64,000 bases of DNA from Thermodesulfobacteriota bacterium (GTDB lineage: Bacteria; Desulfobacterota; Binatia; Bin18): contig OZ219926.1 of NCBI GenBank assembly GCA_964291405.2, positions 4,672,001-4,736,000 of the forward strand, read 5' to 3'. This document shows, piece after piece, positions 2-61,176 of the stretch. The position numbers and the translations under genes were made by a program. The notes beneath the pieces were generated by a model. That model worked only from the letters and a program-made list of their open reading frames with translations, searched no databases and had not been told where the DNA came from. Positions within the stretch are counted from its first letter, which is position 1. Every line of letters starts with the position of its first letter.

Positions 2-337
2 GACGAAGCAGCCCAGGCGGCCGGGTATGCACGCCGGATTATCCCACCCTCGTTTGCCCCGTTTGTGGCGGTCCAAGCCTTGCTCCGGGCTTTTGACTGG
101 GAGCGAGATTTTTTGTTCAACTACCGGACCGGAACCGCCATGTTCGGCGAGCAGGAACTGGAATATCTACGGCCTCTCTACGTGGGTGAAACGCTGACCG
201 TTCGGTCCGAGGTTGCGGACGTGTACGAGAAGAAAGGGAAAAACACGTTTGACGTGATCCAGGTCCGTTTTACGGCGACGGATAACTCCGAAGCGGTGGC
301 CTTTCAGGGGGCGCAGTCGTATATCCTGTTCAAATAA
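2..337 (+). CDS. MaoC-like (hotdog) dehydratase, N-terminal-type subunit; 5' end outside the window
   Basis: Frame is open from base 2 (DEAAQAAGYARRIIPPSF...FGEQELEYLRPLYVGETL), typical of HadA/MaoC_dehydrat_N proteins; paired with the downstream MaoC gene. Confidence 0.75.
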   Translation, partial: DEAAQAAGYARRIIPPSFAPFVAVQALLRAFDWERDFLFNYRTGTAMFGEQELEYLRPLYVGETLTVRSEVADVYEKKGKNTFDVIQVRFTATDNSEAVAFQGAQSYILFK

Positions 338-5076: not shown

Positions 5077-6108
5077 ATGCAGACGAGAAAGACATTTCGC
5101 CAACCCGACGAAATCTTTGCGCTCCTGACCAAAGAGCCCCTCTCCCCACTCTACCTCTTTCATGGTGAGGAGGCATACTTCATTCATCGCGCCATCGCTC
5201 TAGTGCGGGCGCGTCTGGGTGAAAACCCGGCAGTGCATACGTTTTATGCGGGAGAAGATCCTCTTGAGCGGCTACTTGAGGCTTGGGGTAGTGCCTCACT
5301 TTTTGCCGAACGTCAATTAATCGTACTCAAGGGCGCAGGCCAACTGTCCGCCGCCGACCGGGAAAGTCTGGCGACTGAAGCCGAGCTCCGGGATGACAGT
5401 CAGCCCCTGGTGGTCTGTGTGCAGGGCAGGGCCAACCTCAGCCAGAAATTCTTTTCTGTGTGTGCAAAGCGTGGTTTTGTTGGCGAATTCCGTTCGCCTT
5501 TTATCAACCAAATCCCCGGCTGGGCGCAGCGTTTTGCTCGGGAACGGGGGGTCCGTCTCAACGCCGAGGCGGCCTCGTATTTGGCCGATCATGTTGGAAC
5601 GGATTTGCTCGCCCTGTCCACCGAGATCGACAAGCTGGTTGCCTTTGTTTTCCCGGCAACTGAAATAGATCAGGAGGTGGTCAGGCAATGTACGGGAGAT
5701 CTGCATCAGCACTCGGCCTTTGATCTGGCTGATGCTTTGGGACGGCGCAACAGCAAACAGGCCGTCCGCCTGGTACAGGATGTATTGAGTGATGAGAAGC
5801 GGGCGCTCCCCGCCTTGCACGCGCTGGTCAGTCATTTCCGGCGTGTGTGGCGGGTCAAGGATTTGTCCGACGTGAATGCCCCGAGCAGCCAGATTGAACG
5901 GGTGGTCGGGCTGCGAGGACAGCGGCTCCGCGCTTTGGTAGAGCAGAGCCGTGTCTTTTCGGGCGCAGACCTGCGCCGCATCCTGCAACATGCCTCGCAA
6001 TTAGACCTTGCCCTCAAATCGAGTCCGACCTCTCCCCGCCTCTTATTCGATGCCTTTATTCTGGACGCCTGTGAGGGCACGGCCGTTGAAGGTAGGCCCA
6101 AACTGTGA
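5077..6108 (+). CDS. holA: DNA polymerase III subunit delta
   Basis: PLYLFHGEEAYFI, SLFAERQLIVLK, L..EIDKL, FDLADAL, D..LKSS motifs. Confidence 0.88.
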   Translation: MQTRKTFRQPDEIFALLTKEPLSPLYLFHGEEAYFIHRAIALVRARLGENPAVHTFYAGEDPLERLLEAWGSASLFAERQLIVLKGAGQLSAADRESLATEAELRDDSQPLVVCVQGRANLSQKFFSVCAKRGFVGEFRSPFINQIPGWAQRFARERGVRLNAEAASYLADHVGTDLLALSTEIDKLVAFVFPATEIDQEVVRQCTGDLHQHSAFDLADALGRRNSKQAVRLVQDVLSDEKRALPALHALVSHFRRVWRVKDLSDVNAPSSQIERVVGLRGQRLRALVEQSRVFSGADLRRILQHASQLDLALKSSPTSPRLLFDAFILDACEGTAVEGRPKL

Positions 6109-6452
6109 CAGACAAAACGACCCACGCCCAAAACCCCGGCCAACTCGGCCTTGCTTTCGTTTCTGCTACAAGTGAGGCTGCACCCCCGCGTCAGGAAAGC
6201 GGCCACCACGCACAGGCCGGACTTGCTAGCCTGCTTCCCCACGTCCAGACTACATTCCTTGGGGCCCCTTTAGACGAGGTGGACCAGGAAATCCTGCCCT
6301 TACTTGAGCTGTGCGAATCGGTGTTAACGCGGGTGCTTGACGTTGCCAGGAAAAGAGGGGACCAGGGCTGGTCCGAGGCGGAATACCGTAGCCTGCGCGG
6401 AATCGGCCAGGCCCAATGGTTGCTGATTGAGGCCCAGGCCAAAAAGCGCTAA
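6105..6452 (+). CDS. Hypothetical protein
   Basis: GTG overlaps the holA stop (GTGA); helical C-terminal half; no recognisable motif. Confidence 0.45.
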   Translation: MTDKTTHAQNPGQLGLAFVSATSEAAPPRQESGHHAQAGLASLLPHVQTTFLGAPLDEVDQEILPLLELCESVLTRVLDVARKRGDQGWSEAEYRSLRGIGQAQWLLIEAQAKKR

Positions 6453-6523
6453 CGCTTGAGCCGGAATTCATGCCATCGGAAAGTTGAATTCCTATTGTAC
6501 GATCCGTTTCGTTGCCGGGCCTC

Positions 6524-6787
6524 AGAAAAAACCCCGACAGTGCTACGTCCGTAAGGACGTCCCGTGGGTGATGAACACGGGCTGCCGGGGCTACGGTGGT
6601 GCCTGGTCCTCCCAAGCGACCACCCGATTTGGGATAGGTCGGCCTAGGAGGCCACCACCTCACTGATCACCGTCGTTGATAACTGCACTAGACCACCTCC
6701 TTTCTCGGCGCACCCAGCGCGGGTCCAGAATCCGCTCAGCCAGGAACCGATCGCCGTTACCGGCCCGAGGCTCGATCCGCTCTGTCC
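6524..6787 (-). ncRNA. Candidate structured small RNA / sORF-bearing transcript
   Basis: Minus-strand TATAAT at 6794-6799, several GC-rich stems, and a multibranch stem ending in a U tract near 6525-6530. Confidence 0.5.
6644..6688 (-). CDS. Candidate 14-aa peptide MQLSTTVISEVVAS
   Basis: Extended SD AAAGGAGGTG 5 nt before GTG; TAG stop. Confidence 0.4.
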   Translation of the reverse strand: MQLSTTVISEVVAS

Positions 6788-6971
6788 TACCGCATTATAG
6801 GGACAGCAGCGACACGGGCTGTGTCAGCCCGACCGAAAAACTGTCCTTAGCCTACGCCCAAATGTCTCAAAGGTCCAGTGTTCACAAGAGAATACAAAGT
6901 CTGTCACTGTCCTTTTTCTGTACTGACGGCTCTTGCGGATACACGCCGTGCTCTATACAGTCCTGTGAGAC

Positions 6972-7853
6972 ATGCCCAATTTTCATGCCTTAGCCGTTTT
7001 TGAAGCCTGTGGATCGTCGACCCAAGAGATCCAAGCAGCTGTCTCATCCCTCTTCGAGTCCCTCTCTCATCAGCGTGTCCGTTACCATGAGCACGAACTG
7101 AGTGAAGGCCCGAGCGCTGCGCCGGCAGGGAAGAACTTCTACTGCATGGTGTTCGTCGACTGTGATGTCGATGCCTACACCGAAGAAAAAGCGCTGGATT
7201 TTGCAAACGATGCCTTTGAGCATATTTCGACGGAGACCTGCCAATATCTGTCCTTCGGGCTCGTTCCCGGTCGTCAGCGTGTGCAGCGCCGACGAGAACG
7301 AGAAGAAGCGAGCGCTGCCGACACAAACGAACGGGGCAGACGGCGGCGTGGAACGCAAGGCCGGGGTCGGAGGAGACGAGGCGACCAGGAAGACGGCAGA
7401 GGGGCGCGGCAGGAAACGGATCAGACCCAAGCGACACCAGGAGAAGCCGCGGTCATACCTGAGTCTGAACCGAGCGAACCGCCTCCCGCCCCAGAGCCGG
7501 AGATACAGGCGGTGGAAGTCGAGCCGGAGGAGGTTGAGGCGCCAACCGAACTTGAGGTGGACATTGAGGCCGGCGAGCCGCCCGCACCGCCACCCCGCAG
7601 TTCTGCGGCCATGCAGGTCACCGTCACCGTCAAGCTCCGGGCTTCCGAGCTCAAAGACTCGCTGAATGGCGAGGCCCCGCAGCAAGACCTCGTTCAGATG
7701 GCGATTGCCGAGGCGCGGAACCGACATCCGGAAGTCCCGGCCGATGTTGCGCCCGAATCGGAGTCCATTCCGCTCCCCGGTGGCGACACGCTGCTGTTGT
7801 TGACCTGGAAATACCCGGCTCCGGTTCCTTCCTCAAAAGAATCGGCATCGTAA
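6972..7853 (+). CDS. Hypothetical protein with globular ends and an Arg-rich then Glu/Pro-rich disordered linker
   Basis: Long ORF with plausible composition; RRRR tracts and EPE repeats. Confidence 0.6.
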   Translation: MPNFHALAVFEACGSSTQEIQAAVSSLFESLSHQRVRYHEHELSEGPSAAPAGKNFYCMVFVDCDVDAYTEEKALDFANDAFEHISTETCQYLSFGLVPGRQRVQRRREREEASAADTNERGRRRRGTQGRGRRRRGDQEDGRGARQETDQTQATPGEAAVIPESEPSEPPPAPEPEIQAVEVEPEEVEAPTELEVDIEAGEPPAPPPRSSAAMQVTVTVKLRASELKDSLNGEAPQQDLVQMAIAEARNRHPEVPADVAPESESIPLPGGDTLLLLTWKYPAPVPSSKESAS

Positions 7854-7992: not shown

Positions 7993-9219
7993 ATGCAACA
8001 CACCAATGACCAGCAGTATATGCTTTCCGGGGTGACAGTCCTGGATTTTACTCAATACTTGGCCGGACCGACCGTGACCCGTCTCATGGCAGAGATGGGG
8101 GCCAATATCATTAAGGTGGAACAGGCCCCCATGGGTGATCCTTCGCGTTTGCTGCCGTTTATTCAGGATGATCGCAGCGCGTATTTTGTCCAACAGAATC
8201 GCGGCAAAAAAAGTCTCTGCCTGGATTTCGACAAGCCGGAATCCCTTGAAATCCTGCGGGCCTTGATTCCGACCGTGGATGTTGTGGTTGAGAATTTCGG
8301 GCCAGGTGTGATGGAAAAACGGAATCTTGACTATTCCTCGCTCAAGACAATCAATCCCCAGATTATCATGGTTTCGATTTCCGCCTTTGGACGCAAAAGC
8401 CCACTGTCCCACAAGGTCGGCTACGATTTCATTGCCCAGGCCTTCTCCGGCATCATGCATATGACCGGTAGTCCGGACGGGCCGCCACAGTTTGTCGGGC
8501 TCGGTATTGCCGATGTCAGTAGTGGCGTCCACGCCTTTGCGGCCTTGGGTTATGCCTTATACCACCGGGAACGCACTGGTGTCGGCCAGTATATCGACCT
8601 GTCCATGATTGACGCCATGTTCCATATGCACGAGGTCAATGTGCAGGGCCATACCATGAGCAAGGGCGAGTTTGTGCCGCTCCGGATGGGGTCACATCAC
8701 CCCCTGGTGTGTCCGTGTGGGGTGTTCAAAGGACCCGAGGGCTGGATAGTCGTCCTCGTCCTGGACCGACAGTGGGCCAATATGTGTAAGGCTATGGGCA
8801 GGCCGGAGTTGATTGAAGACGCCCGCTTTGCGACCAATGCCGCGCGAGGAGAGAACCAGGGCGAACTCATTCCGATCATTGAAGCGTGGATGCAGGCGCA
8901 GCCGAGTGATGAGGCCGTCCTCCAAATCTTTGAAGAGCATCGGGTTCCGTCCGCTCCCGTTATGTCCATCACCGATATATTGAAGCACCCGTATTTCAAG
9001 GCGCGGGAGATGGTTCGGACGGTCCCCGACCCCATCCTGGGAGAAGTCACCATCCCCGGCTTCCCACTCAAGTACTCCGAGTTTCCCCGGCTCCCGGACA
9101 TTCAAGCCCCGCTTTTAGGCCAGAACAGTGCCGAGATACTGCGGGAGCAACTCAGCTATAGCAACGAAACCATCGCCGCACTCCAAGCGAAAGGGGTGCT
9201 GTATGCAGAGGACCGTTAG
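7993..9219 (+). CDS. CaiB/BaiF family III CoA-transferase
   Basis: VLDFTQYLAGP, GANIIKVE, NRGKKS, VVVENFGPG, GYDFIAQAFSG. Confidence 0.95.
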   Translation: MQHTNDQQYMLSGVTVLDFTQYLAGPTVTRLMAEMGANIIKVEQAPMGDPSRLLPFIQDDRSAYFVQQNRGKKSLCLDFDKPESLEILRALIPTVDVVVENFGPGVMEKRNLDYSSLKTINPQIIMVSISAFGRKSPLSHKVGYDFIAQAFSGIMHMTGSPDGPPQFVGLGIADVSSGVHAFAALGYALYHRERTGVGQYIDLSMIDAMFHMHEVNVQGHTMSKGEFVPLRMGSHHPLVCPCGVFKGPEGWIVVLVLDRQWANMCKAMGRPELIEDARFATNAARGENQGELIPIIEAWMQAQPSDEAVLQIFEEHRVPSAPVMSITDILKHPYFKAREMVRTVPDPILGEVTIPGFPLKYSEFPRLPDIQAPLLGQNSAEILREQLSYSNETIAALQAKGVLYAEDR

Positions 9220-19522: not shown

Positions 19523-19874
19523 GGGGGCGATCTGGTTTCGACGGGGGCTAGAAAGCCAAGGCTGCATGCCGGGGTTCTGTCCCGCCCGTAAAACGGACAG
19601 GCTGCAATTTAACTGCAGACGATTTTGATTACGCTCTTGCTGCCTAGAGCAGCTTGCGTCTTACCGATCCGCGCCCGTAGGGTCGGCTAAGGCGACATAA
19701 ATCGGGATAGGGCTCGCATCGTGCCGAAGGGTGTGCGCCCGAAACTCTACTTTGGCTGGTCTGAAGGCATCCTGCTCGTAGGAGGCCCGAGGATGAGATT
19801 AAAATACGAGCTACGCATTGTAGATGCCTTGAGTGGACTACTTTCGGACGCGGGTTCGATTCCCGCCGCCTCCA
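19523..19874 (+). ncRNA. ssrA: tmRNA, tag peptide ADDFDYALAA (19615-19647)
   Basis: 5' GGGGGCGATCTGGTTTCGAC, 3' GACGCGGGTTCGATTCCCGCCGCCTCCA, tag ending YALAA; directly after smpB. Confidence 0.96.
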
Positions 19875-19949
19875 TTCCGTCCTAATCCTTTCCCTTCCCG
19901 CCTGTTCTCCGATAATCCATTAACGATTTGTATTTGCAGGATTTTTTCT

Positions 19950-61091: not shown

Positions 61092-61176
61092 TGCCGGAGG
61101 CGGGGCTCGAACCCGCACGGGGCAAAGCCCCATGGGATTTTAAGTCCCATGTGTCTACCAGTTCCACCACTCCGGC
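61092..61176 (-). tRNA. tRNA-Leu (TAA)
   Basis: GCCGGAGTGGTGGAACTGGTAGAC...TGGGACTTAAAATCCCA, long variable arm, GGTTCGAGCCC; CCA not encoded. Confidence 0.96.

Follow-up and report, generated by a model that had tools for sequence, protein, structure and literature searches.

A single-copy structured RNA gene of Candidatus Binatia complementary to the whole 16S rRNA 3′ tail and carrying a positionally conserved micro-open reading frame

The stretch of DNA considered here, referred to as the window, comprises 64,000 nucleotides (nt) of a genome recorded as Thermodesulfobacteriota bacterium (GTDB lineage Bacteria; Desulfobacterota; Binatia; Bin18), namely positions 4,672,001 to 4,736,000 of contig OZ219926.1 in GenBank assembly GCA_964291405.2. 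Between two plus-strand genes, a convergent one at 6105–6452 and a divergent one at 6972–7853, its minus strand harbors an intergenic locus for a small RNA, here called the Binatia RNA, which combines a structured 5′ domain, an extended Shine-Dalgarno (SD) sequence, a micro-open reading frame (micro-ORF) of 14 codons, a long hairpin and a predicted terminator. An earlier note on this DNA had described a TATAAT, the motif AAAGGAGGTG with a GTG open reading frame (ORF) beginning 5 nt behind it, a long hairpin, a three-way junction and a T run on the minus strand, all of which are present. Farther genes around the locus encode DNA polymerase III delta (5119–6108) and a family III CoA-transferase (7993–9219), and no Pfam family was found for either immediate neighbor (6105–6452 and 6972–7853, both plus strand). 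The 293-residue product of the gene at 6972–7853 contains much Glu, Arg and Pro and is apparently of low complexity. Judged by comparison with its relatives, the Binatia RNA is a real, single-copy, structured and apparently free-standing RNA gene, and the arrangement of its parts is suggestive of a small mRNA whose selected function would be to hold ribosomes.

Of 61 genomes belonging to the same class, 47 (the own genome counted) gave a match at E ≤ 0.001 in a BLAST search with positions 6500–6820; if only high-quality genomes are considered, the proportion is 33 of 44. The own genome gives a single match and hence has a single copy of the RNA, and a motif pattern found exactly one match in each of 10/10 other carriers tested, with zero matches for the reversed-pattern control. 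Among the metagenome-assembled genome records with a Binatia-type RNA, several bear the title Enterobacteriaceae, Klebsiella pneumoniae or Alphaproteobacteria; these names seem mistaken, and the loci otherwise match Binatia.

The genomic surroundings of the RNA are not conserved. Among 19 loci of several phyla, no flanking gene family was shared in the 55 of 108 listed ORFs which were scanned, ORF calls being crude in high-GC loci, and the sole recurring neighbor is a seryl-tRNA synthetase located upstream in two related loci. A precursor of a RiPP (ribosomally made, post-translationally modified peptide) was rejected as a candidate, since there are no conserved neighbors. These surroundings also bear on the idea of a cis-acting leader or attenuator, in which an upstream ORF and a terminator control a downstream gene. 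In leader-peptide attenuators and dual-function small RNAs (sRNAs), the occupancy of a short translated frame picks between alternative RNA helices, and the succession of a short ORF, alternative hairpins and a terminator in the Binatia RNA does resemble leader-peptide attenuators. In contrast to both kinds of system, however, it lacks a gene downstream in cis, is not known to have a trans target and contains no amino-acid-specific run of codons. The downstream side of the window lacks a gene on the same strand, the next gene (6105–6452, plus) being convergent, flanking genes differ between lineages apart from the two related seryl-tRNA synthetase loci, and a Streptomyces homologue is called an independent sRNA transcription unit in the available text of one report (PMC8780764). 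A cis-acting role is therefore considered extremely improbable.

The most distinctive element is the extended SD sequence AGAAAGGAGGUGGUCUAG (6705–6688, minus strand). One 16S gene was detected in the own genome, ending …CUGGAUCACCUCCUUUCU, and the extended SD can pair without interruption over 18 positions with the final 18 nt of this 16S rRNA, by 16 Watson-Crick and two G-U pairs, where the last paired base, G6688, is the G of the GTG start codon. Going by these sequences, the leader of the Binatia RNA is thus able to base-pair along the full single-stranded 3′ tail of the 16S rRNA, up to the GTG's first base. The 13-mer AAGGAGGTGRTCY occurs only twice in the 4.95-Mb genome, once in the Binatia RNA and once as the antisense of the 16S gene end. 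An antisense fragment of an rRNA operon was rejected as an identity for the locus, as the likeness stops after the tail complement. The complementarity is also present where it was not selected for: a pattern fixing the ORF end only collected 109 loci, 99 of them distinct and 96 with a GGAGG upstream, and in this SD-unselected set of 96, scored against the own-genome 16S tail, 18 consecutive pairs are retained in 72 loci, 17 in 14, 16 in four and 11–14 in six. Among the commonest SD variants listed, the internal changes are A-to-G or C-to-T and keep a wobble pair, and the disruptive ones fall on the two end positions.

The micro-ORF MQLSTTVISEVVAS extends from the GTG at 6688–6686 to a TAG at 6646–6644 (minus strand) and comprises 14 codons. 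A broad ORF set was collected with a pattern of the SD followed by GTGAGGTGG, which itself imposes (C/R/S/G)-E-V, and covers at least 120 loci plus relatives. An in-frame open start lies 3–14 nt past AGGAGGTG in 160 of 161 distinct loci, as opposed to 16 and 4 in the other two frames, and the distance from GAG to the stop codon is exactly five codons in 158 of 161 (TAG in 139, TGA in 11 and TAA in 8). An in-frame start is likewise present in all 96 loci of the SD-unselected set (GTG in 76, ATG in 17 and TTG in 3). In several divergent Actinomycetota loci (L434, L435, L437–L439 and L442–L444), related to the Ms_IGR-5 family introduced below, a CTG occupies the in-frame start position behind a full-tail SD, and L433 and L447 of the same phylum have no obvious in-frame start. 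Because the positions of start and stop are kept while the stop codon changes its identity, translation itself is counted as selected, and the conservation pattern indicates that selection acts on the start of the 14-codon frame, on its register and on the place of its stop, but not on the peptide sequence.

This last point concerns the possibility that the locus is an ordinary tiny protein gene, in which a functional 14-residue peptide (…TVISEVVAS) is produced and the RNA structure tunes its expression. The ORF is in fact conserved across phyla with a recurring C-terminus of the type …(C/R/S)EV(A/V)x(S/R), and the RreB and RreR peptides of the alphaproteobacterial rre small mRNAs discussed below are described as conserved within their own clades (Hahn et al., PMC5711450). 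The nucleotides, however, are not conserved as those of a protein gene. Mean entropy over the last nine sense codons is 0.23, 0.35 and 0.34 at codon positions 1, 2 and 3, respectively, so that there is no third-position excess and third codon positions are not relaxed. The GGUGA and GUGAGGUGG blocks are invariant including their wobble bases, and the bases between them vary freely, giving rise to chemically unlike residues (I/S/T/N/M and C/S/R). GAGGUGG is invariant in 26/26 BLAST-collected relatives and GAGGTG is found in 28/28 actinobacterial loci gathered with an Rfam model (30 less two from unpublished genomes); in these 26 + 28 sequences, which were not selected on the codons in question, the GUG, GAG and GUG codons are constant at their wobble bases, and GAG and GUG are never swapped for synonymous codons. 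Furthermore, there is covariation between the codons at the ORF end and the 3′ arm of a hairpin described below, the peptides range from 11 to 19 residues with free N-terminal residues, and synthetic RreB and RreR are reported to be unstructured (PMC5711450). A functional peptide is therefore regarded as unlikely. The earlier note had asked for codon-level conservation of an EVVA peptide, of which no third-position signature was found, and had offered a stand-alone sRNA, a micropeptide mRNA or a ribosome-binding RNA as readings. This was the right neighborhood in view of the promoter, the terminator, the lack of conserved neighbors, the micro-ORF and the full-tail SD, and in the absence of a codon-level signature the functional micropeptide becomes the weakest of the three. 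A type I toxin was also rejected, the peptide being too short and not hydrophobic, and a search of the literature for the peptide strings of the micro-ORF gave chance hits only.

What the invariant block may be conserved for is suggested by its position. The internal SD-like sequence GAGGUGGU (6661–6654, minus strand) could engage AUCACCUC of the 16S tail through eight pairs. From the end of its GAGG core to the last sense codon the distance is 8 nt, and from the initiating GGAGG to the start codon it is 7 nt. Given this initiation-like spacing, the anti-SD could re-pair with the internal SD while the stop codon is in the A site, and we infer that such re-pairing may accompany termination on the micro-ORF.

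The same part of the ORF is embedded in RNA structure. Helix counts refer to 26 same-class sequences (alignment A2), to which a structure written by hand from the window sequence was applied. The long hairpin consists of covarying helices with a 5′ arm at 6659–6637, which comprises the last ORF codons, the stop and the sequence beyond, and a 3′ arm at 6621–6595 (GGUCG..GGGAGG..CACCACC, minus strand). Its outer helix GGUGGUG/CACCACC is paired in 99.5% of alignment cells with 2 compensatory pairs, CCUCC/GGAGG in 87.8% with 3, and the third helix in 75.6% with 2. The pairing of the ORF end extends to other lineages: in 65 of 119 mostly actinobacterial loci, a 10/10 complement of the 10-mer that follows GAG is found downstream (2 of 119 after shuffling), and the ORF end and the 3′ arm covary as matched variants (GCUGCU/AGCAGU, GCUGUC/GACAGC and GCUGCG/CGCAGU).

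Such an arm raises the possibility of a translation-gated base-pairing sRNA, in which the passage of a ribosome frees the C-rich 3′ arm (…CCAGGCACCACC) to pair with the G-rich ribosome-binding sites of target mRNAs. The 3′ arm is anti-SD-like and alternatively forms a local hairpin of its own with two compensatory pairs, suggesting two states. It covaries with the ORF end, however, instead of staying fixed as a seed would, and the literature searched gave no trans target (no target search in sequence was made), so that this role appears very unlikely.

Downstream of the long hairpin, the stem of a three-way junction (6590–6582/6540–6532) is paired in 92.2% of cells with compensatory changes in 6 of 9 pairs. 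Its inner hairpins at 6581–6576/6566–6561 and 6559–6555/6550–6546 are paired in 84.4% and 79.8% of cells with 5 of 6 and 3 of 4 compensatory pairs, respectively. A U run, read from the sequence, follows at 6531–6526 (all minus strand), and we infer that junction and U run act together as the terminator. A terminator-like site at 6374–6359, the only one returned by a consensus scan, is not the terminator of the Binatia RNA.

Upstream of the SD, the region which the earlier note had called GC-rich forms a structured domain of its own with covarying helices. The closing stem P1 (6836–6831/6777–6772, minus strand as are all elements of the domain) is paired in 82.6% of cells with two pairs changed on both sides, namely U-A to C-G in seven sequences and C-G to U-A in four. 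It encloses two hairpins, P1a (6830–6826/6820–6816; loop GACAC) with compensatory changes in 3 of 5 pairs and P1b (6806–6797/6790–6782), which holds the TATAAT, with 8 of 9. The adjoining hairpin P2 (6771–6769/6741–6739 and 6766–6759/6751–6744) is paired in 95.9% of cells with 6 of 8 pairs changed on both sides, and the hairpin P3 (GCGG/CCGC, 6735–6719) in 77.7% with 2 of 4 compensatory pairs. A pseudoknot joins the apical loop of P2 (CGGCG, 6756–6752) to CGCCG at 6710–6706 and thereby abuts the 5′ side of the 16S-complementary stretch. It is paired in 130/130 cells, the sole two variants among the 26 sequences are compensatory, and 2 of 500 shuffles match this. Across 117 distinct loci of Binatia and Methylomirabilota type, 102 have CGGCG/CGCCG, seven UGGCG/CGCCA, one CGACG/CGUCG and four G-U variants, and three are mismatched. 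By this comparison, the 5′ domain of about 135 nt with its covarying pseudoknot next to the SD is a new feature specific to Binatia and Methylomirabilota.

Other pairings were weighed for the same sequences. RNAalifold, run on 14 sequences, suggested a long-range pairing of UCGGUC with GGCCGA past the stop, which was set aside for P1 with GAUCGA, where compensatory changes are found, and a small GAUC/GAUC hairpin at the start codon was rejected by eye, as its partner varies without compensation. RNAalifold also suggested that the SD is masked by the ORF end (GGUGGCCUCCU), with 95.8% of cells pairable, and the minimum-free-energy fold of the single sequence has the SD paired to the 3′ strand of P2.

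The structure as a whole is paired in 86.1% of cells vs. 34–50% with the partners slid, it contains changes on both sides in 40 of 78 pairs, and 0 of 500 shuffles reach any of five measures. Since related sequences can beat shuffles even without structure, and since the structure was drawn from one member, it is the compensatory counts per helix which carry weight. RNAalifold returned 82 pairs, 19 of them compensatory, and the fold of the full Binatia RNA (−149.5 kcal/mol) has a z-score of −3.8 with 0 of 100 shuffles as low, compared to −2.46 for the shorter span proposed earlier. Covariation, a criterion named in the earlier note, thus speaks for a structured RNA, with compensatory pairs in the helices of the 5′ domain, the pseudoknot, the terminator junction and the long hairpin around the ORF end, the last two having been recognized there from the letters alone.

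The 5′ end has to be placed farther upstream than was assumed. A simple consensus promoter scan gave no site within 6000–7400. The TATAAT at 6799–6794, taken to be a promoter element at first, was rejected as a −10 hexamer: it lies inside P1b, and its second base covaries with its partner there (A-U to G-C). A conserved promoter motif is instead found about 50 nt farther upstream, consisting of a −35-like hexamer TGGACC (6877–6872), which is conserved in relatives as T(A/G)GAC(C/A) 17 nt upstream of the −10, and a −10 hexamer TAGGCT (6854–6849; both minus strand), which is kept as TAnnnT at a constant distance from the RNA while the flanks diverge. Of 117 distinct loci, 91 have the arrangement TNGACN-16..18-TANNNT where it would be expected, as opposed to 0 of 117 for a reverse-complemented control zone. 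Transcription would accordingly start near 6842, about 7 nt past the −10, and the RNA would measure about 319 nt (6842–6524, minus strand) rather than the approximately 260 nt first estimated. In 4/4 metatranscriptome runs examined, from four studies, assembled contigs of relatives (180–417 nt, with 3–19 differing letters) fall on 6494–6827, the farthest-reaching one ending at 6827. The flanks of the RNA are mostly without contigs in the four runs, with one contig starting from 6994, and nothing is concluded from that or from the contig ends.

At the gathering thresholds of Rfam, there is no match in the region of the Binatia RNA, and to that extent the statement in the earlier note that it could not be assigned to a recognized family holds. 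Below the cut-off, however, and with an E-value threshold, the Actinobacteria sRNA family Ms_IGR-5 (RF02471), named after IGR-5 of Mycobacterium smegmatis, matches with 27.7 bits (cut-off 45; E = 2.7e-4 on 801 nt) over model positions 1–184, thus at full length, and the overall design has been published under the name rre (PMC5711450). Over the whole own genome, this match has an E-value of 3.9e-4 and is the only one. RF02471 matches 13 of 20 loci, with 7 having no match at E ≤ 0.01; scores are 83.5–185 bits in six actinobacterial loci, 52.3 in a Blastocatellia locus and 32–39.1 in loci labeled Binatia class, Terriglobia or ‘Thermodesulfobacteriota.’ Among 151 Actinomycetota genomes sampled, 45 match at E ≤ 0.001 and 23 score above the cut-off, where the tallies count four genomes flagged as unpublished (G071, G088, G118 and G190). 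On these scores, a graded series of intermediates joins the Binatia RNA to true Ms_IGR-5 members, making it a distant and enlarged homologue. In a Bryobacterales genome (locus L188, 6192–6521), the RNA is immediately followed on its strand by the gene for ribosomal protein L31, a single acidobacterial case.

The alignment to the Ms_IGR-5 model reaches from the SD over the ORF, with its …EV… and stop, and the hairpin to the CACC element and the terminator. Both RNAs have a full-tail SD and a terminator, in both a GAGGUG precedes the stop of the micro-ORF by five codons, and in both the ORF end pairs with a downstream CACC arm. In contrast, the Ms_IGR-5 model starts a few bases before the SD, where the Binatia RNA has a structured 5′ domain, and the host of the latter, Candidatus Binatia, belongs to another phylum. 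Ms_IGR-5, for which Li et al. (2013) is cited as the original description (bioRxiv 10.1101/2021.12.14.472595), is reported to be expressed in Streptomyces (PMC8079986; PMC8780764), covered by ribosome footprints in M. abscessus and M. smegmatis (PMC4974804) and NAD-capped in M. smegmatis, where it is termed ‘validated but yet uncharacterized’ (bioRxiv 10.1101/2021.12.14.472595), and it was detected again in 2023 (PMC10454040), each according to the available text of the source. Our literature search found no paper on a micro-ORF or a 16S-tail complementarity of Ms_IGR-5, although paper supplements may list the small ORF (sORF), and the main text of Shell et al. (PMC4633059) does not mention the genes flanking IGR-5, MSMEG_5794 and MSMEG_5795.

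The closest published likeness in design is provided by the rre genes, with rreB in Bradyrhizobiaceae, rreR in Rhodobacterales and similar genes in four alphaproteobacterial orders (Hahn et al., RNA Biol 2016/17, PMC5711450). As described in the available text of that paper, rreB is a free-standing mRNA of 165 nt with 17 nt of complementarity to the 16S end, including the GTG's first base, and a 14-codon sORF (PMC5711450). It co-sediments with the 30S subunit, is weakly translated and found mostly in the ribosome fraction, and is stabilized when its start codon is replaced by a stop, indicative of start-codon-dependent decay (PMC5711450). The Binatia RNA likewise appears as a small free-standing gene with a promoter and a terminator, both of them predicted, and without conserved neighbors outside close kin. 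It resembles the rre genes as described there in its complementarity over the whole 16S tail ending on the G of the GTG (18 nt as compared to 16–17 nt) and in the size of its sORF (14 codons as compared to 14–18). It differs in having two G-U pairs among the 18, the published rre pairing being perfectly Watson-Crick, in its host, the rre genes being reported from alphaproteobacteria only, and in the added pseudoknotted 5′ domain, the invariant internal SD and the burial of the ORF end in a long hairpin. Binding to 30S, weak translation and start-codon-dependent decay are shown for rreB only. No paper was found in the literature search that takes the rre class beyond alphaproteobacteria or ties it to Ms_IGR-5.

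Homology to rre-type loci of alphaproteobacteria was judged through the CC2171 family (RF01867), rreB and rreR themselves not being compared, and the model scores 11.2 bits in the window (cut-off 75), its best match in the own genome lying elsewhere at 18.7 bits, and 30.4 bits in a relative (L037). By this measure, the likeness between the Binatia RNA and rre is one of design, without detectable sequence homology. The CC2171 consensus itself begins with GAAAGGAGGUGAUCCAGUG, i.e., the same full-tail SD and GTG, and at least 120 alphaproteobacterial loci of this type (L300–L419) have an identical GAAAGGAGGTGATCCA-GTG leader followed by an sORF. The latter encodes MSHC(L/H)…, is mostly 21–25 codons long, uses all three stops and in many cases ends …EVxxx. 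The sORF of the Binatia RNA is shorter, and its internal SD is constant and not partial, as only about 36 of 117 CC2171-type ORFs have an SD-like pentamer 15 or 12 nt before the stop. CC2171 is described as an sRNA of Caulobacter, also found in Methylorubrum, whose function is not known (bioRxiv 10.1101/2022.01.24.477521, available text). CC2171, the rre genes and Ms_IGR-5 may represent one design. Control matches of RF01867 in six well-known genomes and of RF02471 in two may be antisense of 16S ends. A more limited parallel is the extended SD described for Staphylococcus aureus, where pairing also runs 3′ of the canonical SD toward the start and, in the available account of the cryo-electron microscopy, two extra pairs stiffen the placement of the start codon; in contrast to this two-pair extension, which aids initiation on ordinary mRNAs, the Binatia RNA is a dedicated small RNA, complementary to the entire tail to either side of the core.

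The rre data also bear on a pure clamp on the 16S 3′ tail, that is, a trans-acting RNA which occupies or protects the anti-SD of idle 30S subunits, e.g., from 3′-to-5′ decay, or sequesters these subunits, the micro-ORF being incidental or a release device. The 16–18 nt of complementarity reach the 3′-terminal bases, far past what initiation needs, and the full-tail SD is unique in the genome apart from the 16S antisense. In addition, rreB sits mostly with ribosomes while being weakly translated (PMC5711450), and RNase R is reported to begin 30S degradation at the anti-SD (PMC10901742, available text). A clamp would need neither the conserved start and frame (160/161 loci) nor a conserved stop position with a switching stop codon (158/161), however, and ribosomes are stated to far outnumber rreB, whose overproduction left growth unaffected (Hahn et al., PMC5711450). 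Such a clamp is thus considered rather unlikely.

The reading preferred here, to which we assign a probability of roughly 50%, is that of a ‘ribosome-gripping’ small mRNA, where selection would see the occupancy by ribosomes and the state and decay of the RNA. A 30S subunit would be captured by the full-tail duplex, a step which has been shown experimentally for the alphaproteobacterial rreB. Infrequent initiation at the weak GTG would then send a ribosome through the micro-ORF, and the translating ribosome would melt the hairpin at the ORF end. Once the stop codon occupies the A site, re-pairing of the anti-SD with the internal GAGGUGG could take place and would hold the ribosome at the stop, and the 5′ pseudoknot domain probably sets the accessibility of the SD. 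If capture and holding proceed in this way, the selected product would be occupancy, RNA conformation and turnover, and not the peptide.

Several points weigh against this reading. The 5′ end of the RNA is derived from the promoter motif, and re-pairing of the anti-SD at the stop codon rests on geometry. The contigs from RNA libraries are assembled and come from relatives, give neither ends nor strand nor level, and may include DNA carry-over. For the proposed helix in which the ORF end masks the SD, 0 of 11 pairs show compensatory changes, and several actinobacterial loci have a CTG or no visible in-frame start. The lack of a growth effect upon rreB overproduction tells against the present reading as well, and the function of rreB is said to ‘remain elusive’ in the available text (Hahn et al., PMC5711450). 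Two of the locus sets were gathered with patterns that impose parts of the motif, which renders the counts partly circular, and many relatives are close kin (L001–L020 are 90–100% identical), so that the counts overstate independence.

Full-tail-SD small mRNAs as such were already published, though from alphaproteobacteria only and, according to the available text, with a function not established (PMC5711450). The design is now seen in Binatia, Methylomirabilota, Actinomycetota and Acidobacteriota, and two uncharacterized Rfam families, Ms_IGR-5 and CC2171, are tied to it. New are the host lineage (Candidatus Binatia and also Methylomirabilota), the pseudoknotted 5′ domain abutting the SD and the fixed geometry between internal SD and stop, and the last two make the question of rre function testable. 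If ribosome capture is indeed the function, a widespread RNA acting on the ribosome itself would have been largely missed by annotation, the present case failing the Rfam cut-off. A far-reaching and decidedly doubtful extension would regard Ms_IGR-5, the RNA of Binatia and Methylomirabilota, the acidobacterial forms and rre/CC2171 as one ancient housekeeping class of many phyla which clamps the whole 16S 3′ tail of idle 30S subunits as an RNA counterpart of protein hibernation or tail-protection factors, where release and turnover would be timed by ribosomes that translate the micro-ORF and are caught again at the internal SD, and the pseudoknot domain of Binatia as a sensor of a ligand or factor gating the clamp.

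Two further RNA genes were noted in the window. A one-piece transfer-messenger RNA (Rfam RF00023, 180.8 bits, full length) lies at 19523–19877 on the plus strand, and a transfer RNA match of 85 nt (RF00005, 59.2 bits) at 61092–61176 on the minus strand has a length that fits a class II tRNA.

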